IMG/VR virus record: IMGVR_UViG_3300032242_000295
Span: 1 to 63,541 of that record
From: a virus
Taxonomy: Duplodnaviria > Caudoviricetes
Length of the DNA stretch: 63,541 bases
Direction: 5' to 3' (one strand)
Each line of letters starts with the position of its first letter. Position 1 is the stretch's first letter. Shown here piece after piece: positions 5,233 to 57,269 of the stretch. The translations under genes and the position numbers were made by a program. The notes beneath the pieces are model-generated. The model had not been told where the DNA came from. It searched no databases and worked only from the letters and a program-made list of their open reading frames with translations.

Positions 5233-5661
5233 CTAAGTTGTTGCTACCGTGACTGTACCAATTTGTACACTTAAAACCAAGTTATTTGGAGTAAGTGACG
5301 CATCAAAACTCTCTGAACCTCCAACTGGAGCCCATCCCCACTGGAATATCCTGCTACCACCCTCAACAGTTCCAACACCACTCTGGGTAGTGCCGCCGTT
5401 TACATTTATCTGCAGACCACTTGTACCAGACAATACATAACTCCGATCTGGTCGAGGGTTACGCAATCCCTGCGGATCATCCACAGGAAACATTCCCAGC
5501 TGAAGCTGAGGGTGGTCTGGGTCCCAACACTGGGGACAGACAAGTAAGTCGTATTTCTTAAGCTTAATTATCTCAGTTTTTAGGACGGAGAGTTTAAACC
5601 TGAAGCCACATCGATCACATTCAGCAATCGCATGCTTGCCAGAAGCAAAACGATTGCCCAT
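5233..5661 (-). CDS. Zn-binding phage protein (CxxC...CxxC)
   Basis: ECDRCGF and VCPQCWD motifs, HPQL and RPD; in the structural operon. Confidence 0.7.
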   Translation of the reverse strand: MGNRFASGKHAIAECDRCGFRFKLSVLKTEIIKLKKYDLLVCPQCWDPDHPQLQLGMFPVDDPQGLRNPRPDRSYVLSGTSGLQINVNGGTTQSGVGTVEGGSRIFQWGWAPVGGSESFDASLTPNNLVLSVQIGTVTVATT

Positions 5662-6236
5662 TAGATAACCCTACCTTTTGTCCTTCCGCGCTGGGCAACC
5701 CCGTCGGCACGGCTAGATGCTGTCACTTTTCCGCCTTTTTTAAACGGCAACTGATAACTCAAGTTACCCATTTTGTTGTCGCCGCTTTTACCAAAAGATG
5801 CGTTTAAACGACCTTCTCCAAGTTTTGTACTGTAACCAATGTTGTGACCTCGCCCAACTTTCTCGCCGTGGCTTACAACCTCATTGGTATTGGCAAACAA
5901 TCTACCATTACCAAGCGGCATATCTCCGCTTATCTCTCTGACTTGTGTGTGAGGATCTTTGTTGGAGCGTGATAAGGAAGCAGAAACTGAACCCTCGCCA
6001 ACTGGCATCCTGTATGACGCTCTAGTTTGATAGGGTGAATAATTCTCAGACTTGGCTCCCTTGATGTCTTCGTCTTCCATCTTGCCAAGCATTGTCTGAA
6101 GAGAAAGACCATCTTTCTCGGCACGTAGCCCTGCAGAGCTGCCCTCTTTAGAACCCATTCGCATTTTTCCTGCAAATGGTTGAACTAAAGATTCTTCATC
6201 TTCTCCAGAATATTTTTTAACTTTACGGCTACCCAC
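5661..6236 (-). CDS. Beta-strand-rich (beta-barrel-like) protein with C-terminal shared tag
   Basis: Alternating amphipathic strands ending LSYQLPF, then KKGG and SSRADGVAQRGRTKGRVI. Confidence 0.55.
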   Translation of the reverse strand: MGSRKVKKYSGEDEESLVQPFAGKMRMGSKEGSSAGLRAEKDGLSLQTMLGKMEDEDIKGAKSENYSPYQTRASYRMPVGEGSVSASLSRSNKDPHTQVREISGDMPLGNGRLFANTNEVVSHGEKVGRGHNIGYSTKLGEGRLNASFGKSGDNKMGNLSYQLPFKKGGKVTASSRADGVAQRGRTKGRVI

Positions 6237-6238: not shown

Positions 6239-7183
6239 TTATCTCCCGATATAGGTTTGCCTAGGCACTAAACGCAATGCTGCCTTCTCATGATCCTCGT
6301 ATGCAGCCAATTCCCAAGCCTCGTCGTATTGTTGTTTAAGCATAGGAATACGCTCCATGCCTGTTGGTATCTTGCCGGCGATGTAATACGAAAGTCCTGC
6401 TGCCATGCATGGGATAAACCGGAAAGGAACATCCATGATGTTTACACCGTTGCCGGCGTCTTGTGTTCTGCGCATGCGCCAGTAAGCAAATGTATATTGC
6501 TGGGCGCTGTCTGGCGTGGGCCAGACCGTTATAGCTGGTAACTGTTGCCAGTACACCGTCGCCGCAGAACTATGCGACGCCGCTATTGTGTTGTTTTGTC
6601 CACGGAAACAATTGTTCAATGTTCCTGAGTTAGCGCCAGATGTCTGGGTGATGTAGCTGTAGTTAATTGTCTCTGAGTCAATCTTGACAAAACCAGATGC
6701 GGGTAAACCCGTAACATCACTCACGGAGATGGTTGTATCTGTTGCCCCGATTGAGGATGACAGAGTACAAGCTACAGGTGTAGTCTGGGCGTTGTAGCGC
6801 TGAATCCAGACCTGAATGGGTCTGGCTTGTTGAATCTTATTGGGGATCGTAGCGTAGGTTGAAACGCTAATTCTTGTGATAGTAAGGTCTGCTTGAGTTG
6901 CAGTGTTGTTAGCACCTGTGCGAATAACATGCTCCAACAGATCAATCGTGTCTGCTGGCAATGCGTAAGTATTCTGCCCTTGAACAAAACTGATTGTTCC
7001 GGGCTCAATAGACCAAAGGTTTATTCCTCGGTTAGCCCAGTCTGAGAACATAATGTTTAAACTGCGCCGGGCAGTCCTTAAGTCATACCCCGAGCGCAGC
7101 TCTCCTCCGGCGCGTTCAAACGCCTCCTCGACTAACTCAGTTAAGTCAAGGTTAAATCCGCTTGTTCCGGAGGTGTTTGCCAT
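6239..7183 (-). CDS. Putative head-tail connector / tail tubular protein with inserted beta domain
   Basis: LTELVEEAFERAG...ARRSLNIMFSDWANRGINLW...DVPFRFIPCMAAGLSYY, typical of this phage group. Confidence 0.65.
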   Translation of the reverse strand: MANTSGTSGFNLDLTELVEEAFERAGGELRSGYDLRTARRSLNIMFSDWANRGINLWSIEPGTISFVQGQNTYALPADTIDLLEHVIRTGANNTATQADLTITRISVSTYATIPNKIQQARPIQVWIQRYNAQTTPVACTLSSSIGATDTTISVSDVTGLPASGFVKIDSETINYSYITQTSGANSGTLNNCFRGQNNTIAASHSSAATVYWQQLPAITVWPTPDSAQQYTFAYWRMRRTQDAGNGVNIMDVPFRFIPCMAAGLSYYIAGKIPTGMERIPMLKQQYDEAWELAAYEDHEKAALRLVPRQTYIGR

Positions 7184-8331: not shown

Positions 8332-8991
8332 TTAGCAAACTTTGCCGCGAGTCTTGCCCTTTTGAGCAATACCGTCAGCACGTGAAGAAGCAGATGAAGC
8401 CATGCCGCCTTTAGCCATCTTGACAACCTTACCGCCACGCTTCATTTCATCGCTGTCGTAATAGCTGCTTGGGCGAGCCAAAGATGATGTCTTTACTGGC
8501 TTTTCTTTTTCTGCTTTCTTCTTAGCAAGATACTCCATTGCCATTCTGTCTTGGAAACGTAAGTTTGGCGCTGGGGCTTTCTTGCCACTGCCGATGCCAG
8601 AAGGAGCAAAGTCTGTTTCGGTAGCATCAGACGCCCCAGATGGAATTTGAGTTGGACCGTCTCCGCCTCTAACTTTTTGCCCTGACATGCCGGTAGGATT
8701 TCTAACAGCGCTTTGGACCTTAGCCATGCTAGAACGGCTTGGCTTGTTTGCCATTTGATTAGCATTGAACTGATCCATAACGGCGCGGCTACTTGCAGCG
8801 TCTTGAGCGCCTTCTAAATCGCCAAACTCAGTATCCTTCATTGGGCTCATGGCTGCAGTCATTGGCTTTTGACCATAACTTGGCTGAACATCAACTCCGG
8901 TATCGGTATCGCGGTCAGCACCTTTTTTTCTGTTAGCCATCATCATGCCCAAAGCACCGAGGGCAGCTAAACCTGCTAAGTCACGTGGCAT
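8332..8991 (-). CDS. Low-complexity protein with N-terminal hydrophobic helix and C-terminal shared tag
   Basis: GGAGG RBS; ends MKRGG..MAKGG..SSRADGIAQKGKTRGKVC. Confidence 0.7.
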   Translation of the reverse strand: MPRDLAGLAALGALGMMMANRKKGADRDTDTGVDVQPSYGQKPMTAAMSPMKDTEFGDLEGAQDAASSRAVMDQFNANQMANKPSRSSMAKVQSAVRNPTGMSGQKVRGGDGPTQIPSGASDATETDFAPSGIGSGKKAPAPNLRFQDRMAMEYLAKKKAEKEKPVKTSSLARPSSYYDSDEMKRGGKVVKMAKGGMASSASSRADGIAQKGKTRGKVC

Positions 8992-9193: not shown

Positions 9194-9664
9194 TTACTTC
9201 TTTTTAGCCATTCCACCGCGCTTGTAAGTGCCGTGGGTTAATGTTGCTTTGCCTGTGCCTATGGCGTTACCAGCCATTTTTGGCATCATGCCCTTAGTCT
9301 TGCCTTTGGCTGCAATGCCGTCGCGGCTGGGAGCAGCAGTGCGAACAGGAGCCATCTTCTCTTTGGTGATTCCCTTGCTTTGCTTGTTAGCGCCCATGCC
9401 AGTGGTATCTCCACCCATGCCCATTTTTTTCATACCCATTTTCATTTCACCACCTCTTTTGAATAAAGCCTTTTCACCGTGATTGGTCTTTGGCTTGTTT
9501 GCTACTTGGGAATCAGCACGAGTATCCGCACTGAACTTTTTTCCCTTATCTGCTGAAGTAAATTCTTTACCCACAGATTGAGGGATGCCAACACGCTTTG
9601 CAGCGGCTGGATCGTTGGCGACCATCGCCATCAGATTATGTTGTTTTTGACTGGTACTAGGCAT
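9194..9664 (-). CDS. Small basic protein with GG motifs and internal shared tag
   Basis: MPSTSQKQHNLMAMVANDP; FKRGG, YKRGG, SRDGIAAKGKTKG. Confidence 0.7.
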   Translation of the reverse strand: MPSTSQKQHNLMAMVANDPAAAKRVGIPQSVGKEFTSADKGKKFSADTRADSQVANKPKTNHGEKALFKRGGEMKMGMKKMGMGGDTTGMGANKQSKGITKEKMAPVRTAAPSRDGIAAKGKTKGMMPKMAGNAIGTGKATLTHGTYKRGGMAKKK

Positions 9665-9839
9665 CTTTTTTCAACAGCTTTTGAACCGTATCTGTTTCGT
9701 ATATACGGATACACATCCATACTATACCTAAAAGAGAGCCAACTAACGTGGCGACTGGAGTCATCCAGCCCATCATGCCAGAGAACGTGACTGTCAAAGC
9801 AGCCCCGTCTGTTAGCGCTTTAGCTTCATGTCCGTTCAT
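9657..9839 (-). CDS. Small membrane protein (holin-like)
   Basis: 60 aa with hydrophobic helices followed by RIYETDTVQKLL. Confidence 0.5.
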   Translation of the reverse strand: MNGHEAKALTDGAALTVTFSGMMGWMTPVATLVGSLLGIVWMCIRIYETDTVQKLLKKDA

Positions 9840-10147
9840 ACAAACCTTCCTTTGGTTCTGCCCTTTTGAGCTGTTCCGTCCGCAGATTTTACATAACCGC
9901 CGTCAGCACAGTTCCATGCTCTAAGACTTTTATTGATCCTAGAGTTGGGATCATTAGCAGTCTTTGCGGAGGTCAACTTCTTCTTCATACCACTCATCCT
10001 CGCACAGAAAGAGTCTCGCCTTGATCCTCCCTCTGGTTGAGGCGGTTTCAGATTGTGACCTTCTTTCTTCGCGGAGGCCCGACCCTTGGCGTTCAGTCCG
10101 CCATTGGGGTTCTTGCCCTCCTTGCGTTGCCATGCTGGAGTCGCCAT
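9836..10147 (-). CDS. Small basic protein (DUF6321-like) with C-terminal shared tag
   Basis: AWQRKEGKNPNGGLNAKGRAS...SFCARMSGMK...SRINKSLRAWNC, then ADGG and ADGTAQKGRTKGRFV. Confidence 0.75.
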   Translation of the reverse strand: MATPAWQRKEGKNPNGGLNAKGRASAKKEGHNLKPPQPEGGSRRDSFCARMSGMKKKLTSAKTANDPNSRINKSLRAWNCADGGYVKSADGTAQKGRTKGRFV

Positions 10148-14896: not shown

Positions 14897-15241
14897 TTAT
14901 TTTTCATCCGTAGTCGTGATATTGAAGATATAGGTACCGCCGGCAGCCTCTTCGGACTCTTCCTCTTCTTCGTCTTCGTCTTCGACTTCAACCCACTCGT
15001 CGTTTTCTTCGTCGTACTTGTACCAAGTCTCTCCTTCTACGTCGTAGAAATAGTTGTCGTCTTCTTCTTCGTCTTCTTCGTCTTCTTCAACGACTACGTC
15101 ATAGTCTACAGCCCAGCCGTGAGCTTGTTGAAATTCGATAAATTCTTTGATGATTTCAATCTTGTCGAAATCAAAGGTCTCGATAGTCAAAACTTCGTCG
15201 TCAGTACCCCACTCGCTGAGGTCAATAGTGATCTTATACAT
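14897..15241 (-). CDS. Highly acidic small protein (possible DNA mimic)
   Basis: Long Asp/Glu runs with interspersed aromatics; start at MYKITID behind a GGAG RBS. Confidence 0.65.
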   Translation of the reverse strand: MYKITIDLSEWGTDDEVLTIETFDFDKIEIIKEFIEFQQAHGWAVDYDVVVEEDEEDEEEDDNYFYDVEGETWYKYDEENDEWVEVEDEDEEEEESEEAAGGTYIFNITTTDEK

Positions 15242-15321
15242 GTGTTCTCCAAGGTTAAAAATGGCACAGCTCGGGGCTGTGGAATCATCGTAGACCACCT
15301 TTATTACTTCTGCAAGACAAT

Positions 15322-15369: not shown

Positions 15370-16281
15370 TTAGAAAGAACCAGAAGATCCAAAAATACCG
15401 AGAGGGTCAGACCAGCCGAAGCTGTAACGCTCACGTGATTTGTAACGCACGTTGCCGGTGTCGAAGTCGCCGTCCATGCTGTTTTGCAGCGGTGTACGTA
15501 CGAAGTGCTTCAAACCGTTAGGCACGTCTGTAGTCAAGAACCAAGCATTAACGTCGGTCAAGAAGTGGTTAACAGTCCAGCCTTCTGGAATAGAACCGTT
15601 GTTCTCAAGGGCGTTAATGTCGTTGTTGTTTGTTCCAACGCGCAACTTAGTTTCGAGCAAGCGGGTTGCAACGAACTGGAGTGCTGGAGGAATAATCAAC
15701 TTCTTAGGTTTAGCGGCGATCAACAGACCACGCTCATCAGTCCAAGCAGCGATTTGAATAACGGCGGCTTCAAGGGAAGTCTCGTTCAAGTCAGCTTGAG
15801 TTGCTGGAGTGTTGCTGTTTGTACCACCGTTAACCAAGGGGTGTGCTGTAGAGAACAACGCAACGCCGTCGCCGCCAACGTATTGAGCAGAGAAGCCGTT
15901 GTTCAAAATAGACGCAGCCTTAACTTGCTTGGTGTAAGCCATAGCGCGAGCCAAACCTTTGGTGTAGCGAGCAGACAAGCTGTCGTACAAGTTGTCTTCG
16001 ATCGCCTCTTCGGTGATCGAGAAACCCAAAGCGATGGTTTCGTGGTTATAGCGAGTAGTCCATGCCTCTTGTGCATTGTCATAGCTGATGGCAGAACCTT
16101 CAGCCTTGACAGGAGCAGCAGAGAAACCTGAAAGTTTCGTTTCTTCTTCGAATGAGCGCTCAGAGGTTTCTGTTTCGTAGATCTCTTTGTGCTCTTCGCC
16201 GTAACGAGCGTACTCCAAACCAAACAGTGCGTTTAAACCGGGAAGGAGTTCTTTAAGTAGTTGTGCGCGTGAAATAGCCAT
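15370..16281 (-). CDS. Major capsid protein (Mu gpT-like, HK97 fold)
   Basis: MAISRAQLLKELLPGLNALFGLEY...RERYSFGWSDPLGIFGS; follows portal and scaffold; strong RBS and terminator. Confidence 0.9.
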   Translation of the reverse strand: MAISRAQLLKELLPGLNALFGLEYARYGEEHKEIYETETSERSFEEETKLSGFSAAPVKAEGSAISYDNAQEAWTTRYNHETIALGFSITEEAIEDNLYDSLSARYTKGLARAMAYTKQVKAASILNNGFSAQYVGGDGVALFSTAHPLVNGGTNSNTPATQADLNETSLEAAVIQIAAWTDERGLLIAAKPKKLIIPPALQFVATRLLETKLRVGTNNNDINALENNGSIPEGWTVNHFLTDVNAWFLTTDVPNGLKHFVRTPLQNSMDGDFDTGNVRYKSRERYSFGWSDPLGIFGSSGSF

Positions 16282-18557: not shown

Positions 18558-18968
18558 TTATGCAGCACGTTGAATGCCACGTGGGTCTTCGACTGTCGCT
18601 TCGACCAAATCATCAGTGATGATGCGGAATTCACGACCATGAATCTTCAGGCGTGTGCCTGAATTGGGGCGGACGATGACAAAATCACCGACCTTGCAAG
18701 AAGGACCGTCAGGGAAACGGCTCTTATCTTGATAGGCATCAGGACCCATTTTGACGACAAAAAGTACAGGCGTTAAAACCTCTTCGTAATGCATCGTTCT
18801 GGCATCTTTGACTAGACCTACCTCACTATCGGCATATTCCTCCATAGCCTCTGGTACGACGCAAAGGAGGTGAAACCTCTTAGGATCGGGTAGCTGTTTC
18901 GCCTTTTCCTCTGCAGTCCTGTTAAGGACGCCGGACAGGTCCACAGCGGACACGTCAAATTCACTCAT
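18558..18968 (-). CDS. groES: GroES-like co-chaperonin
   Basis: VVKMGPDAYQDKSRFPDGPSCKVGDFVI...GREFRIITDDLVEATV. Confidence 0.75.
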   Translation of the reverse strand: MSEFDVSAVDLSGVLNRTAEEKAKQLPDPKRFHLLCVVPEAMEEYADSEVGLVKDARTMHYEEVLTPVLFVVKMGPDAYQDKSRFPDGPSCKVGDFVIVRPNSGTRLKIHGREFRIITDDLVEATVEDPRGIQRAA

Positions 18969-19161
18969 CGGATTTCTCCATTCTTTCTACGAGGTCGTTG
19001 ATGGACTGATCTGCGAGGCTTAGACCCCGAATTACTCCGCAGACGTTTTTGTATTCAGCGTAATCTGCTGCCCTGCCTGTTGCGATAAATTGCGCCTGTT
19101 CATCACGCAGGCGTTCTATCTCCTTTTGGATGTAGGCAAGTGCTCGGATTACGTCATTCAT
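18961..19161 (-). CDS. Hypothetical protein
   Basis: DYAEYKNVCGVIRGL helical protein coupled to the portal gene. Confidence 0.65.
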   Translation of the reverse strand: MNDVIRALAYIQKEIERLRDEQAQFIATGRAADYAEYKNVCGVIRGLSLADQSINDLVERMEKSDE

Positions 19162-21587
19162 TTGTTATTCCTTTGGTGGCGGCTCTTCGCCAAGTCAATA
19201 CCCATTCTTGTTCCCTCGAGTTGTTGCTGCTTGTTTAGCTGGTCGCGCTTGGCTGCTGCGTTCGCGGCGACTTGCATGGCGGCAATTTCTTTCTGGGCTT
19301 CAATTCGGGCTTCTTCTATGCGCAGTTGATCGGCTTTGGCAGCTGCTTCAATCTGCTGTTTTTGTTGTTTTAACTGGAGTTCCTGCATCTTTATCTGCAA
19401 CTCTTGTTGCTGCATTTGAACCACAGGGTCTTGCATTTGCTGTTGGGCCATCTGTTGTTGAGCCTCTTGTGTGTGCTGTTTAAACAGCTTGGCGGATGCT
19501 TCGGATGCCATCTGAGCAAGTTGGTTTGCAAAGGCAGGATCAACTTTCTTGTTTTGTTCTTCGTTTGGCAAGGGGATGCCCATTTCCTCTTCGATGCGGC
19601 GGCGGTACTCGAACGCTACGTGCTCTTGGATGTGAGCCATCATTGCTGCTTGAATAGCCTGCGCTTGAGGGTTTTGACCAATGATCTGCATGATTTTTGG
19701 ATCCTGCATAGCATTCATGTGAACCTGAATGTGGGCAGTGTGGTTTTGCTCCGCAAAAGCTTTCAAGGGCTTTCCTGTCAATGCATTCTGGTTTTCTTGG
19801 ATTGGGTCTGTTGGGAGCTCGTCGTCCTCAATTGGGACTAACTTATTGGCGTTCTTAACGCCCAGCACCTCAATCATTTGACGGTGCAGCAGAGGCAAGT
19901 TGTAGAGTTGAGGGGCAGATTGGGCTAATTGGAGTACTGCTTGGTACTGGACAATCTTTTGCGCCATCGTCGCCGCATTGGGATCTGAGACGGGGATGAC
20001 ATCCACCAACTCATAATCTGCCCTTTTTGCACGGCGGTCACCTGATTCCGGCTCGAACTCGTATTCTTCGGGTGCGTCTTCGGCGATGATTTCCTTGAGC
20101 AGTTTAAACTCTTGCTTCATGCTGAAATGCATGCGACTTTGAACTGCGCCCATAACCTTTAGGGTTCGCTCAAGGATAGCCAAGGTTGTACCAACCGGAG
20201 CTTGCGAGCTCATGTCGGAGACGTTCATGTCTCCAGAAGATGCAAATGCTCTGCCCTCTTCTACGATGTTTTGGAAGAGAGCAAACAGAACCTGACTTGG
20301 TTCTTTGTATGGAAGCGGCAGGATGTTGTCTCTGATACTTCCGGAAGGGACGTCTACGTCTCTAAATTCACCCGGCTGAATCGGGGTGTCATCCCCTTTA
20401 ATCCGAAGTCCTCTTGATTTAAGTCCTCCCGGGAGATTTGATAAAGTGCCCGCGTCAACAAGTTGGCGGATGAGCATCGTTGCTGATTTCGCGTAGCCTC
20501 CGATAAGGTGGATAAGACCGTAACCATAGAAGCCAAAACCGGGGATGTATTGGTAGTGGACAAAATGTTGTCGCTTTTGGTGGAGTTCGTCATCTTCGTG
20601 CCAGTTCCTACGAATTGAAAGGACCTCCATGCTACCCTTTTCTATGGTCACCACATAGGGCAGCGCAATGCCGGTCATCTCGCCTTGTTTGTTCTTGTGC
20701 TCATAGCCTAGGAGGTCTAGGTTGACATGGACTTCCAATAGACGGAAGCGGTCATCTTGAATCGCCGTGATGCCGTTTTCTTCTGCCTTTTGTTTTTCGA
20801 TGTCATCTAAATCGTTGGTGGGTTCTCCCAGATCTACATCACGGTAAAAGCCAACCTCTTGGAGTTTGATGATGTCATTCTTTCCCTTGCGCATGACATG
20901 GGTGATTCGTTCTGCGCTATCGAGATCCGATGCTCCATAGGGAACGACTATGTCTTCGGCGGGGATAAAGATGGCAACTTGCCTGTCTTTGCTTGGATCG
21001 TAGTAAACCTTCTTGAATGCACTGCCCGTGATTGGAAGAGACCAAAGCAATCTCTCATGCTCGGGTCGATATTCCTGCATCACCTCTGTCAGTTGGTAGT
21101 TCATGTCCGTCTGAACTCGGTGGGCTGCCTCGTTGATTTCAGGAGTTTCTTTACCGATGATGGAAGCTTTAACTGGCCCGGCGGCAGGGAATGTCTCCAT
21201 GATGCCTTCAGCTTGAAAGCGCACAACAGACTCAGTCAGCATGGGGTGGAACACACCACAGGCTCCTTGCCAAGGCTCAGTTCTCTCTTCGTACTTAAGA
21301 CCTAAAAGCTTTAGACCTTCGACGTAGGTCTGTACCCAGTCCCGTCGGTCGCGTTGATCTTTATCAAAATCATCAATGATTTGCCCGGCAACAGTACTTA
21401 AATATCCCTCAGGCAGATACTCAGCTAAATTTGCGTCGAAGTCCTCGGCGGTATCTTGATGGGGCTCAAGATCAATCTCAAGACCGTCCATCTCAATATG
21501 GACGGCATCTGGATTCTCAATCTCAATAGCCATATCGGGTTGTAGTTCTGAAATGCCCTGTGGGGCTTGGTATAAACCTTTTTCCAT
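19158..21587 (-). CDS. Portal protein
   Basis: 809 aa after TerL; PWQGACGVFHP, GSAFKKVYYD, GFYGYGLIHLIGG; Gln-rich C-terminal barrel. Confidence 0.85.
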   Translation of the reverse strand: MEKGLYQAPQGISELQPDMAIEIENPDAVHIEMDGLEIDLEPHQDTAEDFDANLAEYLPEGYLSTVAGQIIDDFDKDQRDRRDWVQTYVEGLKLLGLKYEERTEPWQGACGVFHPMLTESVVRFQAEGIMETFPAAGPVKASIIGKETPEINEAAHRVQTDMNYQLTEVMQEYRPEHERLLWSLPITGSAFKKVYYDPSKDRQVAIFIPAEDIVVPYGASDLDSAERITHVMRKGKNDIIKLQEVGFYRDVDLGEPTNDLDDIEKQKAEENGITAIQDDRFRLLEVHVNLDLLGYEHKNKQGEMTGIALPYVVTIEKGSMEVLSIRRNWHEDDELHQKRQHFVHYQYIPGFGFYGYGLIHLIGGYAKSATMLIRQLVDAGTLSNLPGGLKSRGLRIKGDDTPIQPGEFRDVDVPSGSIRDNILPLPYKEPSQVLFALFQNIVEEGRAFASSGDMNVSDMSSQAPVGTTLAILERTLKVMGAVQSRMHFSMKQEFKLLKEIIAEDAPEEYEFEPESGDRRAKRADYELVDVIPVSDPNAATMAQKIVQYQAVLQLAQSAPQLYNLPLLHRQMIEVLGVKNANKLVPIEDDELPTDPIQENQNALTGKPLKAFAEQNHTAHIQVHMNAMQDPKIMQIIGQNPQAQAIQAAMMAHIQEHVAFEYRRRIEEEMGIPLPNEEQNKKVDPAFANQLAQMASEASAKLFKQHTQEAQQQMAQQQMQDPVVQMQQQELQIKMQELQLKQQKQQIEAAAKADQLRIEEARIEAQKEIAAMQVAANAAAKRDQLNKQQQLEGTRMGIDLAKSRHQRNNK

Positions 21588-21595: not shown

Positions 21596-23101
21596 TTAGA
21601 CGGTGTAATATCTTTCACTTCTTCTGCTGCGGAAGTAGACAGGGTCATCCTCCTCATCAGACTCTATGCGTATAAATCCACCCTGCCTGAATCTCAACAA
21701 GGCTTGGCTGGTTGAGTCAACAAGGTCGTCGTGGTCCCCATTAGGGAAAGATGCAAGCTCTTCCATGAGCTCATCTGCCCATCTTGTATCTGGAGCCCAC
21801 ACAATTCCTGACCTAAACATGTCAGAAATAGCGTTTACACGCGCTATCTTATCGTTTCCTTTGCTCGGTGTATATTCCTGCAAAGGGATTCCCATCTGCC
21901 TCATCTCATAGATAAGCGGCGCACCAGCCGCTTTCTTTTCGACGATTAAGGTGTCTGGATTCCATTCTTTCCACATCTCAAACGCCTTAGTCTTTAGCTC
22001 TGGGAACTCCATGCGCTTCTTAAACGCATCTAAGACGATGATGTTTGTCCTGTAATCCCCATGCTCGTTAGGATGTTTAAACACACCCCATGTAGTGCAC
22101 GCGGAATAGTCGGCACGGTTGCCCTTTTCGAACGCTGTATCCCAAGACTGGATCAAATATTCGCATGACGGAGGTCTTTCATCCTCCCAAATCCTCCACT
22201 GATCGCGCTTGATGATCGCGCCTTCCTCAGATGTGGGGTTTTGTTGGTACTGAGCCTCCCATTTGGCTACAGGAAGTTCAGCTTTTAGGGCTTCTAGCGC
22301 CTCTTTCTTCCAGAATCCGGGCCAAAGAGGCGTGCCTGAGGGAAGAATCGCCGGAAAATCTATAACTTCCCAGCCATCTACGCCCTCTTTACTCGAGTTT
22401 TTAAGAATCTGCCCTGTTAAATCCCTTTTAGACCAGCGTGTCATCACAATAATGATGGCTCCACCGGGCTGTAAACGCTGACGAGGACCCGATGTGTACC
22501 ATTCATACACGTTGTCATACACCGCAGGGTTGCCTTGTTTAGCTTCCTGCTCAGAATGCGGGTCGTCGATGATTAAAAGGTCAGCACCTTTACCTGTAAC
22601 AGCGCCGCCAACACCTATCGCAAAATAGTCTCCTCCGACTTCAGTGTTCCAACGACCAGCTGCCTTTGAGTCTGAGGATAACTTTGTGTCAAATACTTTC
22701 CCATATGCTTCTGAACTTACCAAGTTACGGACTTTACGTCCAAAGCCCACAGCAAGTTCTGCCGTGTGGGCTGTCTGAATAATCTTCTTATGGGGAAACT
22801 TACCCAAGAACCACGCCGGCAACAGATACGAAGCAAATTCAGACTTCGTGTGACGTGGCGGCATGTTAATGATGAGCCTCTTTAACTCCCCTTTAGCAAC
22901 GCGCTCAAACGCGTTGCCCATGATCTGGTGATGCTTACCGGAGATGAACACGGGCCACATCTGAGATGCAAAGTAGACAAAGGACTCCCTGCATCTCTCT
23001 ACCCTGTCGTTCTCCAGTAAACGCACAATCTTCTTGCGTTCTGCCTCTGATACCGAATCAACGATATCCATGTAGTCTTGGATCTCTTCGGACGTTAGCA
23101 T
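21596..23101 (-). CDS. terL: Terminase large subunit
   Basis: INMPPRHTKS Walker A, LLIIDDP Walker B, YQQNP, SWDTA, FPNGDHDDLVDS nuclease motif. Confidence 0.95.
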   Translation of the reverse strand: MLTSEEIQDYMDIVDSVSEAERKKIVRLLENDRVERCRESFVYFASQMWPVFISGKHHQIMGNAFERVAKGELKRLIINMPPRHTKSEFASYLLPAWFLGKFPHKKIIQTAHTAELAVGFGRKVRNLVSSEAYGKVFDTKLSSDSKAAGRWNTEVGGDYFAIGVGGAVTGKGADLLIIDDPHSEQEAKQGNPAVYDNVYEWYTSGPRQRLQPGGAIIIVMTRWSKRDLTGQILKNSSKEGVDGWEVIDFPAILPSGTPLWPGFWKKEALEALKAELPVAKWEAQYQQNPTSEEGAIIKRDQWRIWEDERPPSCEYLIQSWDTAFEKGNRADYSACTTWGVFKHPNEHGDYRTNIIVLDAFKKRMEFPELKTKAFEMWKEWNPDTLIVEKKAAGAPLIYEMRQMGIPLQEYTPSKGNDKIARVNAISDMFRSGIVWAPDTRWADELMEELASFPNGDHDDLVDSTSQALLRFRQGGFIRIESDEEDDPVYFRSRRSERYYTV

Positions 23102-24992: not shown

Positions 24993-25592
24993 ATGACTCT
25001 TCCTACCATCTACGCCACACGTGAAGAGTGGCTGACACAGGCATCAAACGAACTACGCCCCGCCTTTGAAATTGCGGGTGCAAAACTCCCTGACCGCATC
25101 CGCCTGACGTGCGGTCTACCATCAAATGCGTTACGTTCCAACGCCATTGGCGAATGTTGGATCGATACCGTCAGTGCCGACAAACACTATGAGGTGTTCA
25201 TTCACCCTAAATTGGCTGACCCGAAAGAAGTATTTGAGGTTGTTGTGCATGAGTTGATTCACACTGCCAAGGGCGGTTTCAATCACGGTGTCAATTTCCA
25301 ACGCATCGCAAGTGCCATGCTGTTAGAGCCTATCGATCCCTTTCGCAAGGAAGCATGGGGGGCAACATGTGGCACTCCCGACTTTGATGTCGCTTATGGT
25401 GCGATCATCGATTCACTAGGCGCATACCCCCACGGTTCAATGACCATTGGACGCAAGAAGAAAAAACAAAGTACCCGCATGCTGTCCGCAAAATGCCCCT
25501 CTTGCGGTTATGCAATTCGGTTGTCCGCTAAGTGGGCGTCCTACGGTCTCCCCTCTTGCCCTGTCGATCAAGACATTTTCACCCTAGTTTGA
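24993..25592 (+). CDS. SprT-like zinc metalloprotease with C-terminal Zn ribbon
   Basis: HELIH...HG.NF zincin motif; CPSCGY...CP. Confidence 0.75.
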   Translation: MTLPTIYATREEWLTQASNELRPAFEIAGAKLPDRIRLTCGLPSNALRSNAIGECWIDTVSADKHYEVFIHPKLADPKEVFEVVVHELIHTAKGGFNHGVNFQRIASAMLLEPIDPFRKEAWGATCGTPDFDVAYGAIIDSLGAYPHGSMTIGRKKKKQSTRMLSAKCPSCGYAIRLSAKWASYGLPSCPVDQDIFTLV

Positions 25593-25606
25593 TTGGAGTA
25601 ATACAA

Positions 25607-27085
25607 ATGAATGCATCTACACGTAACACTATCCGCACTGAGATATCACGCATCCCCATGCCCATCCGCAATGGTGCACTGAAAGCACTGGGCATGCCTA
25701 GCACTACCCCAGTACAGGACATAGACAAACTGACCGACTGGGCGATCGACAACTTCACCGACTATGACTTGGCGATCAGCAAGATCAAACATGCAACGCC
25801 TTTCACAACGTCCACTGCCCCGCTTGACAACGCACTGTCCGCCACGGTGCAAGCCACGTCCGCTGTCGCATCACGTGCTGAGACCACTGCCCTCGATGCA
25901 CTGCAGAAAGTCAACACCGTGCACCAAGACCTACTGAAAAAACTGGACGGTCTCAGTGACTCGATCGTGTCAACCGCCAAGTTCGCTAGTGGTATCGGCT
26001 CACGTCTCGACAAGGCAGAACATGAGATGGGCAAGGTTGCCATCGATGATGATGCTGTCAACCGTGCGGTCAACAAGGTTGTGGCTGATGCGTTCGCACC
26101 GTTTAAACAGGCAGTCGAATCTGTCGGGGCGCAAGAGGTTGTCGCTGACCTCGCATCGATCTACGTCACCGAAACCAAGTCGGCACTGGACGTGTTCGGT
26201 GTTGACGTGCGGGACGTGAAGGGAAACCCACTAATGGTTCGCATTTGGAATGACCCCACTGCCCCCGCTGTAAACCCCTACCACGTGTGGACTGAGAAGG
26301 TCTTGCGCCACTTCCTGTTGGCTGACCTCAACGGTGACAACGTGTGGTTGGGCGGTGAGAAGGCAACAGGCAAGTCAACTTCTGTCGAGCAATTCTGTGC
26401 TCGCACTGGACGTGCGTTTAAACGCATAAACTTCACCAAGCAAACCCAACTGGAAGACTTCATCGGCACAACAGGCTATGACCCTGTCAAAGGTACATAC
26501 TTTGAATCCAAGGATTTCCTGACAGGCTTTGCGCACCCCTCCACGTGCATCCTGTTGGATGAGCCTAGCAACCTCGATCCCGCCATCCTCGCCATCCTCA
26601 ATGGATTTTTAGAGCCCAACAGTGCGGTGTCATACGGTAATGCTGTACGCAGACGTGCTAACGGTGTACTGGTGTTCTGTGCTGACAACACGCTAGGAAA
26701 CGGTGACGATTCGGGACGCTATGCGGGTACAAAGGCAATGAATTCAGCCCTGATTGATCGCTTTTCACAAGTGGTTCGCATGGACTACCTACCGATAAAA
26801 GACGAAATCGATGCTGTCATGCGCCACACAGGGTGCACCAAGGAACTAGCAACCCACGTCTTGAAGGCAGTGCGTGTGGCACGTGCCAAGGTACAAACTG
26901 CCGACATTGTGGAAGCACCGTCCATCCGCTCAGTGGTCGCATTCATTAAGTCATTGAAGGTGCTCCCAGTGCGTGATGCATGGGAAGTGGCAGTGGCTAA
27001 CCGTCAGCCTAGCGAATCAGCAACCGCACTCGATGCGATCTTTACAGCAACCATCGATCAGACTTTGATCAGCAACAACATCTAA
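25607..27085 (+). CDS. MoxR/CbbQ/CobS-like AAA+ ATPase
   Basis: GEKATGKS Walker A, ILLDE Walker B, ADNTLGNGD, NSALIDRF; start at MNAST behind a GGAG RBS. Confidence 0.9.
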   Translation: MNASTRNTIRTEISRIPMPIRNGALKALGMPSTTPVQDIDKLTDWAIDNFTDYDLAISKIKHATPFTTSTAPLDNALSATVQATSAVASRAETTALDALQKVNTVHQDLLKKLDGLSDSIVSTAKFASGIGSRLDKAEHEMGKVAIDDDAVNRAVNKVVADAFAPFKQAVESVGAQEVVADLASIYVTETKSALDVFGVDVRDVKGNPLMVRIWNDPTAPAVNPYHVWTEKVLRHFLLADLNGDNVWLGGEKATGKSTSVEQFCARTGRAFKRINFTKQTQLEDFIGTTGYDPVKGTYFESKDFLTGFAHPSTCILLDEPSNLDPAILAILNGFLEPNSAVSYGNAVRRRANGVLVFCADNTLGNGDDSGRYAGTKAMNSALIDRFSQVVRMDYLPIKDEIDAVMRHTGCTKELATHVLKAVRVARAKVQTADIVEAPSIRSVVAFIKSLKVLPVRDAWEVAVANRQPSESATALDAIFTATIDQTLISNNI

Positions 27086-27094
27086 GGGGTAAAC

Positions 27095-28708
27095 ATGAAA
27101 CAACGTTTAAACGGCTATGAATTCCGACTCGCCATCGAGTCAGCATGCCACAAGATCTGCAGTGAACTAGCACTGTCTCCAGTGTCGGTCTCATGGGGTG
27201 ACATCAGCACCGCACGTATCAATCAACGTGGTGACATCGAGTTGGCTAACGTGGCTGATGACGCTGTCATTGATCGCAAGACTTTCGACAAGTACGTGGG
27301 CTTTATCTTGCATGAGTTACTGCATCGCAAGTTCACCGATTTCGGTGCACGTGGTGACAACCAGTACATTGATCAACTGCACAACGCAATTGAAGACGCA
27401 TGGATCGAGAACAGTTGCATCGCACTGGGCTTGGTTGGTAACGCACAGGGTCTCTTGTCTAGCGTGATCGACAACATGTGCGCTGACGCACTCGCCAACT
27501 GGGACGATCAGTGGCATCACCCCGCACGCTACCCCTTCCTGTTGGCTGTCTATGCACGTAAACACGCAACGATCAAACTGCCCTTGGCTGACGGTCTACA
27601 ACCGATCTTTGACGTGGCATGTGCACGTCTCGCTAACGCACAAAGTTCTTATGACACACTTGCTATCGCTCAGTGGGTGTTCGAGGAATTGCAACACGTT
27701 GACAACCAAAAACCACAGGGTCAAGACCAAGACCAAGACCAAGGCGATCAACAAGGCGAGGGCGAGGGTCAAGGCAATGGGTCTGAGACCGACGAGAAGG
27801 GGTCTACAAGCCACGATCAGGGCGAGGGTGAGGGTGAGGGTGCTACCCCACGTCCTGACGCAACAGGCAAGGCACGTTCACCAGTGAAGAAAAACGGTGA
27901 CGTGTTCAAAGCGCGTGAAGTCGAGCCCACATGCAAAGCCCCCGATGGTGCGGGTGCGGGCGGTACGTACTCAAAAACGTACGGAATTACAAAACGTGGG
28001 CACAAATCAAGTCAGGCTAAGTTCCAAGTCGATATCAACGTGGGTGCTAAGTTGCGCTATGAAGTACGCAAAATGTTTGAGAACACAGGCACTGATGACT
28101 TCCAAAACAACCGCAAGTCAGGCTCGATCAACTCACGTGCACTGCACAAAATTTCAGTCGGCAGTGATCGCCTGTTTAAACGTAGGCTTGAGGTTGAGGG
28201 TATCGACTCAGCAGTGGTGATCGTGCTCGATGTCTCCCAGTCTATGTTCTCGAATGATCCCGCTACATCACCCATCCAGTGCGCTATCAACGCATGCGCA
28301 TCACTGCTCGATGCACTCAACAAAGCGGGTGTCGAGACAGCACTGCTTACTTTCGGTGATGAGGTTGGTATTGCTAAGGGTTTCAAAGACAACGCCAAGA
28401 AGACTTTCGATATCTTGCGTCACACTGGTTCGGGCGGATGCACCAACGATTACTTTGCAGTGCGCTATGCACACGAGTTGTTGCACGGTCACACTGCACA
28501 ACGCAAAGTCTGCTTTGTGCTCACTGACGGTGAAGGCATGGTGACTGAGACCAAGGCACAAGTCGAGTCAGGCGAGCGCTTAGGTATCACAACGATAGGC
28601 TTGGGGATTCAGCAGAACGTGTCCAACGTATACAAGCACAACGTAACCGTGCGTGATGTTCAAAGCATCGGCACTGTCGCATTCAACAAAATCAAATTAG
28701 TAGCATAA
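27095..28708 (+). CDS. CobT-like VWA protein with N-terminal HExxH domain
   Basis: HELLH...NAIEDAWIE, acidic Gly linker, MIDAS DVSQS, LTDG. Confidence 0.85.
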   Translation: MKQRLNGYEFRLAIESACHKICSELALSPVSVSWGDISTARINQRGDIELANVADDAVIDRKTFDKYVGFILHELLHRKFTDFGARGDNQYIDQLHNAIEDAWIENSCIALGLVGNAQGLLSSVIDNMCADALANWDDQWHHPARYPFLLAVYARKHATIKLPLADGLQPIFDVACARLANAQSSYDTLAIAQWVFEELQHVDNQKPQGQDQDQDQGDQQGEGEGQGNGSETDEKGSTSHDQGEGEGEGATPRPDATGKARSPVKKNGDVFKAREVEPTCKAPDGAGAGGTYSKTYGITKRGHKSSQAKFQVDINVGAKLRYEVRKMFENTGTDDFQNNRKSGSINSRALHKISVGSDRLFKRRLEVEGIDSAVVIVLDVSQSMFSNDPATSPIQCAINACASLLDALNKAGVETALLTFGDEVGIAKGFKDNAKKTFDILRHTGSGGCTNDYFAVRYAHELLHGHTAQRKVCFVLTDGEGMVTETKAQVESGERLGITTIGLGIQQNVSNVYKHNVTVRDVQSIGTVAFNKIKLVA

Positions 28709-40154: not shown

Positions 40155-40425
40155 ACTGCTTGAGGTAGTCAGGCAAGCACCCTGTCAGCGATGCGGTATA
40201 GAGGACGGCACTGTAGTTGCCGCGCATTCCAATCAATTAAAAGACGGTAAAGGCAGAGGCATAAAAGCACCTGACTACAGGATAGCTGCCCTTTGCTTTC
40301 GCTGTCATCACGAGATTGACCAAGGAAATAAGCTCACCAAGATTGAGCGTTTAAACGCATGGGATGAGGCTCACCGGGAAACGATAGGCTGGCTGTTTGA
40401 GAACAACCACCTATCAGTCCATTGA
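40138..40425 (+). CDS. DUF1364/HNH-like Zn-binding putative nuclease
   Basis: PCQRCG..VVAAHSN..GKGRGIKAPD..AALCFRCHHEID. Confidence 0.75.
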   Translation: MYRNNKLLEVVRQAPCQRCGIEDGTVVAAHSNQLKDGKGRGIKAPDYRIAALCFRCHHEIDQGNKLTKIERLNAWDEAHRETIGWLFENNHLSVH

Positions 40426-43400
40426 CTTCCTAAAGAGTTTAATGTTGGCGGTTATGTTGTTTTGCGCCTGATTTAAACTGGTAAGAAGATCTCGCTTGGT
40501 GTCTGCGTCCATGTTTGATGAACGTATTGCGGTGGCGGCTTCGTTTAGCTCTTTCATGTCTTTATCCATAGACTTAACTAAGTCAGCGCTCGCTAACATC
40601 TTGATGGTTTCTTGGCTGTACTGAGACAAATTCTCAAAGTTCATGGTGCGCTCAAGGAAGTTAGATGTCCTGACCGCCTCATCTACAGAGTTCTTGAGGT
40701 CGTAGTACGCCGTCACATTGCCACGTGCTTCTGGGTCAAGTAAGAACCTACGGATGACTGGCATCTGCTCAAAGCGTTTAGACGCTCTAGGCACGTCGCT
40801 ATTAGATGCTGTGATTGCATCGATAGCATCTACCGCATACATACCAAACGTTCCCGTATACCCGCCGATGATGTGATCAATCATCATTGGAGATTCGCCC
40901 GTCACACTACCCAACCACTTAGCCAAGCGAGATGTGTTGGGTCCTACTTGGAATTCCTTAGCCACGCCCTCTAGACCTTGACCGACAATGGCTCGGTTGG
41001 TAAAGAAGGAGTAGTTTGTCTTTGCCTCAACGATAGGCAGAACAACCTGAGGGATTGGGTTAAACGCAAATGTACTCATGAAGTTACGCTTCATGGCATC
41101 AGCAAAGTCTTTACCAGTGTCAGTGCCAAATGAGTAAGCGGCAATGCGCTCAGGGATAACCTTGAAGATAACACCCACCTCAAATGGGATAGGTATCTTG
41201 ATGCCTAGGCTAGGAATCAACCAGTTGTTATCGCGTGTTTCTTGTTCCTGTTTCTTGTAGTCATCATCGTCATGGGTGAGACCCCAGTAAATCATGGACA
41301 AAGCCATGATAGTTGCTCCTCTAATGAAGAACGACTTCTGGATTGCTTTTGCATCTTGCGTAGCCATCTTGCCAAAGGCGGCACGATATAAAACATCTAG
41401 ACCTTGGATGCGTGCATTTAAGAACGGAACGGCGGCGGTCATTATCCTGATCACAGCAGAACTGCCCTTGCGGTTAAAGTTCATCACCTCGAGCGCACGG
41501 AACAGGGCTTCAGCCTCGTTGCCTGTTTCGGCTAGAACATTCTTGTAAACTTCCATGCGGGTAGCGGCATCTGATGCTGTAGTGCCTTTTTCTAATGCTT
41601 CCCATACAGATGTAAACGGCTTGGTAATCTTGCCAAATGATGTGCTTGGACCGTACTTGGCTAACTCTTTCTTGAGCTGTTTACCGCTTGCTTCCACGTT
41701 CTGGGAGAACTCATATCCTCCCAAGATACCAGCGTTTAAAAGCGCTTGATACTCAGGGGCAGTACCACGCAGTGCACCGGTAAAGTTCTTGACTGCGGAT
41801 GCGATAGGAGTCATCTTGACACCGCTCGTTACCCATGCAGACATAGAGTCACGCACCATGTTGGCTAACATGAAGCCGGGGTCTTTGGTAACTAGGTTAC
41901 GCAAAAGGTTAGCCGGGCCAGCAAAGAAGCCGAGGAACGGCAATTCAGGCAAGTTTAAACTCTGCATTGAGTTATACAGAGCTGGGTCAGCAACGATGTA
42001 TGCCTTCTTCTGACCGTTCTCTAATACATGCACAACAGAGGGATTTGTATCAGATGGGAACGTTGGCACTGCCTCGCCAATATCCTCAAAAACTTTAACT
42101 GCACGCTGGGCTGCCGTGTTTTTCATACCAGCTTGGATGCCAGATTGAACGTTACGGACAATGGTTTCCATCAAATCAGCGATAGCAGTGGGTGAACCTT
42201 CCAACTTTTTGCCAATTTTCACGGCAGAAATGCTTTGGAATACCTTGGGGCCAAGGGTCTGCTCGTCTTCCAACTGGCGGTAGAACGGAATGTAGTCAGA
42301 GTATTTACGGTACTCGTCAGCCATAGACTTACTCAATACTCCGGTGTCCACTTGGTATTGGACTAGGGCGTCGTTGAACTTGTTCCACTCGTCAAATATC
42401 TGTTTAAACTCAGGATATTGATTGACTAACTGATCCGCGTAAGCCAAGTCGGCTGGTGTGTAGTTCTGCTCTCTATTGTCTTTAAAGAACCTACGGGCAC
42501 GTTTAGCACCAGCATAGAACTGCCACATCTGATAAATGCGTGGGTCGCCATACTTAGCCAACGGGGCAAAGATAGCGACTGGTCCTTTGATGCTTCCATC
42601 AATAGTGGTAATTCCATTACGGAACACAGGCGCACCGCCATGACGATCATGTACACCCAGTGCGGAGGCTGTTACACCGGCGGCTAGGTCAGACATAAGG
42701 GCTGCGGCTTCTGCGCTTTGGTCGGCTAGAAGGGCTGCCCCGCCCATCTTCTCAGCACGTTTCTTGTCAGCAACGCTCATAGCGTTGTAACGGTTCATAG
42801 CTTTAGAACGGAAATCAGACCATGATTTAGGCGAGATGGCATCCATCATCCGTTCGGCAAAACCTTTCTGCTCCCTTACATAGGTGGCTCTGTCGATAGC
42901 GGCATTTATTTGAGGAGACACAGAGTTTCTCAGGCTTAGACGGATGTCACCTTCTGCCTGTGCTTGACGGGCTTGCTCAGGTGTCATGCCGAGGCGTGCG
43001 GCTTGTTCTGTGCTTATCTCACCTAATCCGTACGTACCAATGTTGCCTGTAACGGACTTAATGGCGGTCGGGTTATAAACGGCATAGTTTTTAGAGCCAG
43101 CTTCAAGAACAGAGAACCCATCAAAGCCTAGAGCGCGGATAGCTTCTTGTACTGGCTCACTCTCAATGCGGGTCCAGAGACCACGTGAGATTTGTCCTTT
43201 AACCGAGTTCAACCAGTTATCAGCATTCTTCATGCGGCCCATTACTGATGAGTTATTCATCATCCATTCATAGACCCTGTTTACATCATCCTTGTTGGCA
43301 TAGTCAAACACGTTCTTAGCGTTGACATACACGGGCATGATGTTGCCTTTGGTCGGCAGCAGATTGTTTAAACTCTCAATGATCTCACCCTCTATCTGGT

Positions 43401-52029: not shown

Positions 52030-52491
52030 TTAGAATTCATAAATCATTTGCGTGGCGGCTTCTTTAAAGCCCATCCGAGCCCATAGCTTTGCAACACGCA
52101 AGTCGGTCATTGCCGACACCATCAATCGTTTAACACCTCTTGACTTCAAGTCATTAAGTGCAAATTGCACAAGTTTTTTACCAACGCCATTGCGATGATC
52201 TTGTAGTACAAAAAGCGTATCTTCCTGCGCTATTAGATCACGGTTATGCATATCTCTGGTTAGATAAACATTGGCGTATCCACATGCTGCGCCGTTTAAA
52301 CGCAACACATAAGTAATCAAGTCGCCTCGTTCACAAGACTCTCCATACTCATGGAGCCTTGGGTTGTAGGGTGAATAGGTTATTCCTTGCTTGGCTAGGC
52401 GCTCAACCATTTCAGAATAGTGCTGACGGTACAAGGGCTCAAGCTCCAAGTACGTGTCAGTGAACTTCTCAATGGTTATGTCGTAGCTCAT
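52030..52491 (-). CDS. GNAT-family acetyltransferase
   Basis: LFVLQDHRNGVGKKL...LWARMGF. Confidence 0.75.
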   Translation of the reverse strand: MSYDITIEKFTDTYLELEPLYRQHYSEMVERLAKQGITYSPYNPRLHEYGESCERGDLITYVLRLNGAACGYANVYLTRDMHNRDLIAQEDTLFVLQDHRNGVGKKLVQFALNDLKSRGVKRLMVSAMTDLRVAKLWARMGFKEAATQMIYEF

Positions 52492-56816: not shown

Positions 56817-57269
56817 CTATTTTGTGTGGTATTCGGCTTCAGTCCAGATGCCGGGTTTGTATTTACCTTCTGGTTTATAAATTGTCAACTCTTGCTGACG
56901 CATCTCAGGGGCAAAGCTAATGTGCATCCAGCGTCCATATTCATGGATCATCTGGTCAAACTTAATACCTGCCTTTAAAACAAGTTGACATAACTCGTAA
57001 GGAGTGTGAGCAGAAGAAGAGCAGTCAATAGCCCAGCCGTCCATGTGACTCGAAACCTTAGAGCCGCCGACAGCCACGTTAACGTCAGGCAGACGTAGCC
57101 AAGAATTAACACGAATAGGGCCTGTGACGGCACGGACTTTCTCCAAGTGTTCAGCCGCTGTTTTCATGTTTGCCAGTTGGCGCTCGTCGGGCTGGTTGTT
57201 TATATCCATCCGTATGGCGGTCTCGCTATACGTGGCTTCTTCAAGGTTGAAGTGCTCAGATAGTTGCAT
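56817..57269 (-). CDS. Endolysin, peptidase M15 family
   Basis: MQLSEHFNLEE..NSWLR..VGGSKVSSHMDGWAID..WMHISF (SxHxxxxAxD plus H). Confidence 0.85.
   Translation of the reverse strand: MQLSEHFNLEEATYSETAIRMDINNQPDERQLANMKTAAEHLEKVRAVTGPIRVNSWLRLPDVNVAVGGSKVSSHMDGWAIDCSSSAHTPYELCQLVLKAGIKFDQMIHEYGRWMHISFAPEMRQQELTIYKPEGKYKPGIWTEAEYHTK

Follow-up and report, generated by a model that had tools for sequence, protein, structure and literature searches.

A signal-less protein with a porin-like predicted beta-sheet and a lineage-specific C-terminal tag in an uncultured podovirus-like phage

The window analysed here comprises 63,541 bp and has direct terminal repeats; it is a complete virus record (IMG/VR record IMGVR_UViG_3300032242_000295), the genome of an uncultured podovirus-like phage, and the subject of this report is a 191-residue protein encoded on its minus strand in the structural operon. 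The original prediction, made from the sequence alone, regarded this protein as a virion-packaged, beta-barrel-like pro-protein that is cut at F|KKGG so that its exposed phenylalanine can be read by the beta-barrel assembly machinery (BAM) of the host. The models and alignments described below indicate a real and unusual gene: its product represents a new family of domains, predicted to fold like a porin, and the tagged-cargo setting is new as well; the function that we infer for it lies at the host outer membrane. The open reading frame (ORF) consists of the following parts, where pLDDT is the predicted local distance difference test score:

5661–6236, minus strand: target ORF, 191 aa plus stop; the start codon is GTG and is preceded by GGAG at a distance of 6 nt
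6186–6236, minus strand: N-terminal leader, residues 1–17 (KVKKYSGEDEESLV), short and acidic, predicted to be disordered (pLDDT <50)
5742–6185, minus strand: beta-meander domain, residues 18–165, ten predicted strands
5730–5744, minus strand: junction motif F165-K-K-G-G169 (Phi-x-x-G-G)
5664–5741, minus strand: C-terminal tag, residues 166–191 (KKGGKVTASSRADGVAQRGRTKGRVI), 26 aa, basic, predicted to be disordered (pLDDT <50), common to the lineage

The strand peptides YQTRASYRMPVGEGSVSASLSR (residues 69–90), HNIGYSTKLGEGRLNASFG (131–149) and MGNLSYQLPF (156–165) are all present in the domain, and the last of them is followed by KKGG and then KVTASSRADGVAQRGRTKGRVI, as the original prediction had read the ORF, its peptides and the shared tag. 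Its view that the protein lacks a Sec signal peptide also stands: the first 45 residues contain no hydrophobic run of six or more residues except GSSAGL, and the stop-to-stop frame gives just 8 extra codons upstream, which leaves no room for a signal peptide. The protein is strongly polar, with a grand average of hydropathy (GRAVY) of −0.79, and there is no second copy of its body in the window. At E ≤0.01 the target has no match in Pfam, and it has none in PHROGs, nor any sequence relation to known ejection protein families; a PDB profile search gave one match only (E 0.75) and no outer-membrane protein. A remote family member, P0039, matches Porin_4 at E 0.0039 with 17.5 bits, below the cut-off of 27. 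Among 50,697 records of cultured phages there was no match for the target, its last 31 residues, a 219-aa tagged protein of the window or the remote members P0039 and P0027, a search in which the low-complexity filter of BLAST may hide the tag.

The fold has been predicted twice, from two distant members. AlphaFold2 (AF2) with the alignment of close homologues gives a 10-strand antiparallel meander, from strand 18–27 to strand 154–162, at a mean pLDDT of 74; the core blocks are mostly at 80–93, and the leader and residues 167–191 are below 50. For P0039, which is about 25% identical and was modelled from a different alignment, AF2 again predicts ten strands, with pLDDT >90 over residues 10–160 and disorder after the Phe. 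Both models were compared with 48,161 representative chains by unbiased structural alignment, and membrane beta-barrels occupy 49 of the 50 top rows for each model, the exceptions being lipovitellin and an uncharacterised Bacteroides protein. The top structural match is KdgM for both the target (Z 12.8; root-mean-square deviation (rmsd) 4.3 over 138 aa) and P0039 (Z 12.0; rmsd 4.5 over 139 aa), and NanC matches the two models at Z 10.8 and 10.1, about 138–144 residues being aligned with KdgM and NanC. The lowest rmsd, 3.2–3.5 Å over 148–151 residues, is found with the porins OmpG and CymA and the exopolysaccharide-export barrels PelB and BcsC, each fitted with ten contiguous strands; these four are barrels that we take to have 14 to 16 strands, numbers that are not in the alignment output. 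An RHS/YD-repeat shell was considered as another candidate for the fold and rejected, none of such structures being in the top rows.

Does the meander close into a barrel? Its best fits are ten contiguous strands of 12–16-strand barrels (rmsd 3.2–4.5), and a designed 10-strand barrel fits the target model poorly, with template-modelling (TM) scores of only 0.33/0.41; the domain is therefore probably an open curved sheet rather than a closed 10-strand barrel, a view drawn from alignments. Such a domain would probably be incomplete alone and be completed by oligomerisation or by added strands. A two-copy complex prediction of residues 15–170 scored 0.00, which is neither support nor evidence against oligomers. 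Accordingly, at the level of prediction the beta-barrel-like fold originally proposed is borne out by a ten-strand meander and its likeness to membrane barrels, although the barrel is probably not closed.

The sequence pattern agrees with a two-faced sheet. The beta hydrophobic moment at 160 degrees gives modest support for the single sequence (z = 2.2; reached by 27 of 2000 shuffles) and is clear in the family-averaged profile of 22 sequences (z = 3.56; reached by 0 of 2000). The hydrophobic face is made of three to four strongly hydrophobic positions per strand together with the invariant Tyr 75, 135 and 161, which lie near the side of the termini, and the opposite face consists of Ser, Gly, Asn, Lys and Arg. 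Tight conserved G-x-G turns are on the same side as both termini, and slightly longer charged loops are on the other side. Bacterial outer-membrane proteins have short turns and both termini on one side and longer loops on the other, a topology that matches this layout. The domain is built of hairpin repeats of about 29 aa with Y-x-x-x-Phi-G-x-G turns, and hhalign pairs the repeats R1 and R3 at E 1.6e-4, R1 and R2 at 7e-4, and R2 and R3 at 2e-3. The last strand, SYQLPFKKG, is in register with the internal turn motifs SYRMPVGEG and NIGYSTKLGEG, weakly (E 0.05–0.12), and the KVTAS that follows GG resembles the strand starts after internal turns (SVSAS, RLNAS). Therefore P-F-K-K-G-G looks, from these repeats, like one more hairpin turn rather than a prepared C-terminus.

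The target has 19 close homologues in metagenomes, at 66–93% identity. Three further proteins, P0020–P0022, share both the leader and the end (PFKKGG plus tag) with the target, yet their bodies of ~150 aa are unrelated to it, which suggests that cassettes are exchanged between conserved ends. The leader is kept in close homologues and in proteins with other bodies, and it occurs in remote fused homologues as GYSGEDESLV. In the alignment of 23 rows (the target, the 19 close homologues and the three with another body), P164, G168, G169, Y161 and most tag positions are invariant, while residue 165 is F in 19 rows and L in the other four. An exhaustive profile-free search gave 45 proteins at E ≤0.001: some match by the tag only, and others, of 420–1400 aa, match residues ~6–175 at 29–38% identity. 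A domain alignment of 22 rows (the target, one close relative and 20 remote relatives) again has an invariant counterpart of Y161, and the domain ends in P-F in 16, A/N/T-F in four and P-L in two (F 20/22, L 2/22), with x-x-G-G next in 20 of the 22. A narrower alignment, used for a genome-contig scan, found 1 locus only. The original claim that Phe is conserved before xxGG has thus largely been confirmed. The half-size homologue P0025 (122 aa) contains the last ~6 strands only, ends in PFAKGGNVKRKKK and could not form a barrel alone.

The remote relatives place the domain in a different context. Four of ten tested carry Pfam SLT, and these match the PHROGs 'internal virion protein with endolysin domain', 'lytic tail protein' or transglycosylase; the match to internal virion protein comes from the SLT parts of the fused relatives only, and no SLT domain is found in the window's own genome. 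At the sister-phage loci (L081 and L083–L097), an ORF of 393–1579 aa bearing the domain is flanked by genes of one head module, those for the large terminase (TerL), the portal or both, in 15 of 16, on both flanks in seven, and at 1 of the 16 it lies beside homologues of the 493- and 704-aa ejection-like proteins of the window. The domain is nearly C-terminal at six of these 16 loci, where a different conserved 18-aa tail (SVSAYDPxxVDAI...) follows GG. In the large relatives Phi-x-x-G-G is present on both flanks of the domain, and in many of these proteins the domain is internal.

The C-terminal tag has a core of S-x-R-A/G-D-G-I-A-x-R/K-G-K-T-K/R-G and is not confined to the target. The cluster of tagged genes in the window includes:

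8332–8991, minus strand: second tagged ORF, 219 aa, with an unrelated body and a C-terminal tag, ending ...RADGIAQKGKTRGKVC
9836–10147, minus strand: third tagged ORF, 103 aa, with a DUF6321 body and a C-terminal tag
9194–9664, minus strand: fourth ORF, 156 aa, in which the tag core lies internally; it also has three Phi-x-x-G-G motifs
9657–9839, minus strand: 60-aa protein with one hydrophobic segment, holin-like in appearance, within the tagged-gene cluster

The DNA of the tag copies differs at synonymous sites, which points to selection on the peptide and rules out the tag as a DNA-level repeat. A Walker-A reading of G-x4-G-K-T was rejected as well, since its Lys is replaced by Arg in the target itself, and so was the idea that the tag, with its R-A/G-D-G, is read by the pair of VWA and AAA genes in the window: the VWA protein is absent from 9/9 other tag-bearing records and from MinM2. 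When IMG/VR was scanned for the tag pattern, at least 600 stretches matched, of which 242 were confirmed; 80 loci (L001–L080) were kept for counts. These 80 loci hold at least 225 tag matches and at least 212 distinct tagged C-termini, usually two to five per locus, all on one strand. GG lies at most 22 residues upstream of the tag in 201 of the 212 distinct termini, and in these 201 the residue three before GG is M in 60, Y in 50, F in 45, L in 18, K in 20, C in five and R in three; that is, M, Y, F or L precedes xxGG in 173 of 201, whatever the body. The terminus lies exactly three residues past the G-x-T-x-G core in 156 of the 212 and is Cys in 91. Some tagged proteins have a second tail ending ...GG-x-C. 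Phi-x-x-G-G also occurs in several small basic proteins of the window.

All ten tag-bearing records tested have the same capsid protein (83–87% identity), and the five portals tested are 59–64% identical. DUF6321 occurs in 530 cultured phage records, only three of which cover at least 80% of the query, so that nearly all are without the tag; a literature search for DUF6321 found no papers. Two proteins that match by the tag only had no Pfam match at E ≤0.5. Because of the single capsid lineage, the lack of a match in cultured phages and the mostly untagged DUF6321, the tag is regarded, on sequence grounds, as a lineage-specific addition to diverse small proteins. Likewise, because Phi-x-x-G-G precedes the tag on unrelated bodies and aligns with internal hairpin turns, the Phe seems to belong to a motif used generally at turns or junctions and not to a designed C-terminus.

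The surroundings of the target gene were annotated with Pfam (36 window proteins) and PHROGs (29 window proteins). The minus strand holds the virion module, which also includes two SU10-adaptor-like proteins and tail fibres, and the target gene lies in this structural operon with one adaptor-like gene on either side. Its stop codon and the ATG of the next gene have 1 nt in common.

6239–7183, minus strand: upstream neighbour, 314 aa, phrog_12985 and a weak SU10_adaptor match
5233–5661, minus strand: downstream neighbour, 142-aa CxxC...CxxC protein, the start of which overlaps the target stop codon
10151–12802, minus strand: 883-aa fibre-like protein of the virion module, 38–44% identical to virion structural proteins of T4-like cyanophages (S-RIM44, Syn1, S-PM2)
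14897–15298, minus strand: acidic, Asp/Glu-rich ORF, 133 aa, directly downstream of the capsid gene
15370–16281, minus strand: major capsid protein, virion module
18558–18968, minus strand: GroES-like protein, 136 aa (phrog_3188, E 1.9e-5), immediately after the portal gene
19158–21587, minus strand: portal, virion module
21596–23101, minus strand: TerL, virion module
25532–28708, plus strand: gene pair of AAA_5 (MoxR/CobS-like) and VWA (CobT-like), the sole stretch of raised G+C (0.53)
40414–49902, minus strand: polyvalent protein, 3162 aa, with ART-PolyVal (ADP-ribosyltransferase) and LPD38, adjoining the ejection-like genes
49906–52020 and 52488–53969, minus strand: ejection-like proteins of 704 aa and 493 aa, carrying Phi-x-x-G-G motifs
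52030–52491, minus strand: acetyltransferase-like gene (phrog_1249), between both ejection-like genes
56817–57428: M15 peptidase, endolysin-like, far from the tagged-gene cluster

The Phi-x-x-G-G motifs of the two ejection-like proteins are YAGGGEI, YATGGSA, FAEGGNP, MADGGIS and YSDGGRL, and the 493-aa protein has hydrophobic Gly/Ala-rich stretches close to its N-terminus. The site just after the portal gene is the position of the prohead protease in many phages; here it is occupied by the GroES-like gene, and no protease gene was recognised among the scanned window proteins. The extremely acidic product of the 133-aa ORF might serve as a counter-ion for the many basic small proteins. The likeness of the 883-aa protein to cyanophage proteins hints at a picocyanobacterial host, and the cultured relatives found through the portal (34–46% identity) infect Pelagibacter, Roseobacter, Synechococcus/Planktothrix and Caulobacter, all of which are diderm hosts.

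Taken together, these findings lead us to favour, tentatively and with somewhat less than an even chance, an accessory, tag-addressed virion cargo protein, the porin-like amphipathic beta-sheet body of which acts on the host outer membrane. The tag on the hypervariable set of small proteins would direct them into the virion, much as the internal proteins of T4 are directed by their capsid targeting sequence; the cargo would exit with the DNA on infection; and the beta domain would then insert into, or open, the outer membrane. In sister phages the same domain is a module of large lytic transglycosylase-bearing proteins. This process does not require cleavage. A role at the envelope is the best-supported one because the domain is tied to peptidoglycan-cutting virion proteins of diderm-infecting phages. 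The tag as a shared address is in keeping with the variation of bodies and positions between close relatives: the barrel gene lies at the site of the window in L001 and after the DUF6321 gene in L002, and both content and order of the tagged-gene cluster vary. The virion and envelope setting of the original prediction accordingly remains plausible in view of the structural operon and the remote SLT fusions. Its suggestion of a part in DNA entry fares less well if an essential DNA conduit is meant, for the reason of distribution given next.

Several points weigh against the reading as tag-addressed cargo. In five complete genomes with a capsid 83–87% identical to that of the window, tags are present and the barrel body is missing each time, the Zn-ribbon gene coming straight after the gene for the 314-aa adaptor-like protein. 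The domain is therefore not the essential DNA conduit of the lineage, and any envelope role is dispensable or host-specific. The presence of the protein in the virion is one that we infer, and so are packaging, ejection, membrane insertion and oligomerisation. Three to four lipid-side hydrophobic positions per strand, together with the low GRAVY, are thin for a stable membrane span. Foldseek gave no match in PDB at E ≤1e-3 for either model, the top PDB rows being nearly all outer-membrane barrels, and nothing in BFVD at E ≤1e-3 for the target model, where the weak rows include uncultured-phage proteins named porin or outer membrane beta-barrel and another that is polyvalent-protein-associated; nor has the target a sequence match in Pfam or PDB. 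An ejected protein has to pass the tail channel unfolded and then to fold without periplasmic chaperones, and we know of no beta-barrel for which this has been proven. Finally, the ejection proteins known to form outer-membrane pores are helical (PMC10925440, PMC8954989).

Other explanations start from the same observations. In that of the original prediction, a pro-protein is cut at F|KKGG, the C-terminal Phe acts as the beta-signal, and BAM either folds the ejected protein into the outer membrane or is blocked by it. The last strand does have the form h-x-Y-x-h-P-F, with Y161 invariant and F165 in 19/23 close and 20/22 wider homologues; the termini and tight turns on one side match bacterial outer-membrane proteins; EspP open-sheet intermediates on BAM, 7tt5_P and 8qn4_F (Z 11.7), are among the Foldseek and VIA rows; and the different 18-aa tail after GG at six of 16 loci looks like a removable appendage. 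However, 26 residues come after F165 as encoded, Y-x-h-P-F is internal in many relatives, and many large proteins contain the domain itself at an internal position. On 173 of 201 bodies, including non-barrel ones, the tag is preceded by Phi-x-x-G-G, a motif that aligns, weakly, with internal hairpin turns, KVTAS resembling the start of a next strand. No protease gene was recognised, and a cut after GG would leave ...PFKKGG, which has no terminal Phe. Moreover, proteins that exit through the tail come from outside the cell, whereas BAM acts from the periplasm. The gene is also dispensable in the lineage. Neither cleavage at F|KKGG nor a part for BAM finds support in these results, and we consider the mechanism as a whole improbable. 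The possibility that the protein is a soluble virion or assembly module, its sheet packing on other subunits in the neck, the plug, the capsid interior or at the DNA end and the barrel matches being mere consequences of a long meander, is unlikely but deserves more weight. The position between two adaptor-like genes, the high polarity and thin hydrophobic belt, the open rather than closed model, half-size homologues such as P0025, and the remote versions between terminase and portal are all in keeping with it. On the other hand, absence from the syntenic site in 5/5 relatives with the same neck and head genes, and the other site in L002, would be odd for a fitted structural part; fusion with a peptidoglycan-cutting domain points to the envelope; and the 49 membrane barrels among 50 top matches meet no competition from soluble sheets.

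It is also conceivable that the protein is not packaged. As a late intracellular protein, it might reach the periplasm via holin/endolysin lesions and break the outer membrane at lysis as a spanin substitute, or it might be a moron-type exclusion factor. An accessory, mobile gene in a late operon, an outer-membrane-like fold without a signal peptide, the 60-aa membrane protein (9657–9839) within the tagged cluster and the M15 endolysin-like gene could be explained in this way, and no spanin was recognised, none having been systematically searched for. Nevertheless, the homologous domains are modules of very large virion-type proteins by terminase and portal genes, lysis alone does not easily account for a tag that so many unrelated small proteins share, and the lineage is uncultured and apparently lytic, with no lysogeny genes recognised in the scanned proteins; this makes a role in lysis or exclusion quite unlikely. 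Least of all do we expect a Gly-rich protein that weakens the envelope by binding to lipopolysaccharide or lipid, with no pore being formed, like insect attacins and gloverins. The nearest named clusters in a language-model search are indeed Attacin_C (0.78) and Gloverin (0.76), and the lipid-binding sheet of lipovitellin is among the structural rows at Z 10.0, but scores below 0.9 are at chance level by the calibration of the tool, the lipovitellin rmsd is 9.2, and there is neither a Pfam match nor a PDB sequence match other than that at E 0.75. Such a function is very improbable.

Returning to the tag-addressed cargo protein, what would it mean? The breach of the outer membrane by short-tailed phages is known only for a few helical ejection proteins, and an all-beta, porin-like module would widen this picture. 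The module has no export signal and switches between a tagged gene of its own and a part of large virion proteins that bear a transglycosylase, and all the phages in which it is found are uncultured. It would offer a testable case of membrane beta-barrel formation outside the usual route of Sec, chaperones and BAM. The tag, which hundreds of otherwise unrelated small proteins carry, is a candidate for an addressing peptide, and if it directs packaging, it marks accessory proteins delivered into the host and could be a tool for loading capsids with proteins. A bolder proposal, unlikely in our estimation, is that the lineage injects a signal-less porin-like sheet protein that completes an outer-membrane barrel in one of three ways (it associates with itself, the hairpin-like tag donates a strand, or it docks on host BamA at the open seam), and that, in parallel, the 26-aa tag is a new capsid-addressing peptide defining a hypervariable injected cargo. 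If true, this would be the first beta-barrel component of a phage apparatus for genome delivery or envelope attack; a full-text literature search found no description of a beta-barrel ejection protein, the search being limited and absence unproven.

Among known systems, the small monomeric porins KdgM and NanC (12 strands) have in common with the target an all-antiparallel meander, short turns on the side where the termini lie and a second face that is polar. The target differs from them in having 10 strands, no signal peptide, 26 residues past the last strand and a thinner hydrophobic belt, in its 10–12% identity without a profile match, and in the location of its gene in a phage structural operon. 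Type V beta-domains (EspP, NalP, AIDA-I, intimin, invasin) are structurally similar at Z 10–11.7, and as in an autotransporter, a large 'passenger' with an enzyme in it precedes the C-terminal domain in sister phages. In contrast, the Sec signal peptide, the 12 strands and the true C-terminal aromatic residue of autotransporters are all lacking in the target. Lom of phage lambda, an Ail/OmpX-type barrel of eight strands with a signal peptide, is made by the lysogen; it resembles the target as a small beta-barrel-type accessory gene product of a phage late/tail operon, although the Pfam scan of the target gave no sequence or profile relation. With regard to the tag, a parallel is provided by the internal proteins of T4 (IPI, IPII, IPIII and others), a diverse and fast-changing set of small proteins with a short conserved terminal peptide and a variable locus (PMC3012670). 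The tagged set likewise differs in bodies and positions between close relatives and shares only a terminal peptide. The T4 signal is N-terminal and is cut by the prohead protease, whereas that of the window is C-terminal and 26 aa long, with no protease found among the scanned proteins and with packaging proposed by analogy. The closest analogy for the role is with the pore ejection proteins. T7 gp14, P22 gp7 and DEV gp72/gp73 are virion-internal, are expelled first and open the outer membrane, together with a peptidoglycan-cutting partner, for example the N-terminal transglycosylase of T7 gp16 (PMC8954989, PMC10925440). These are core gene products that are helical or have predicted helical membrane segments, whereas the target is all-beta and accessory and matches no PHROG or Pfam family; the proposed role is the same, and in its relatives the domain of the target is fused to SLT.

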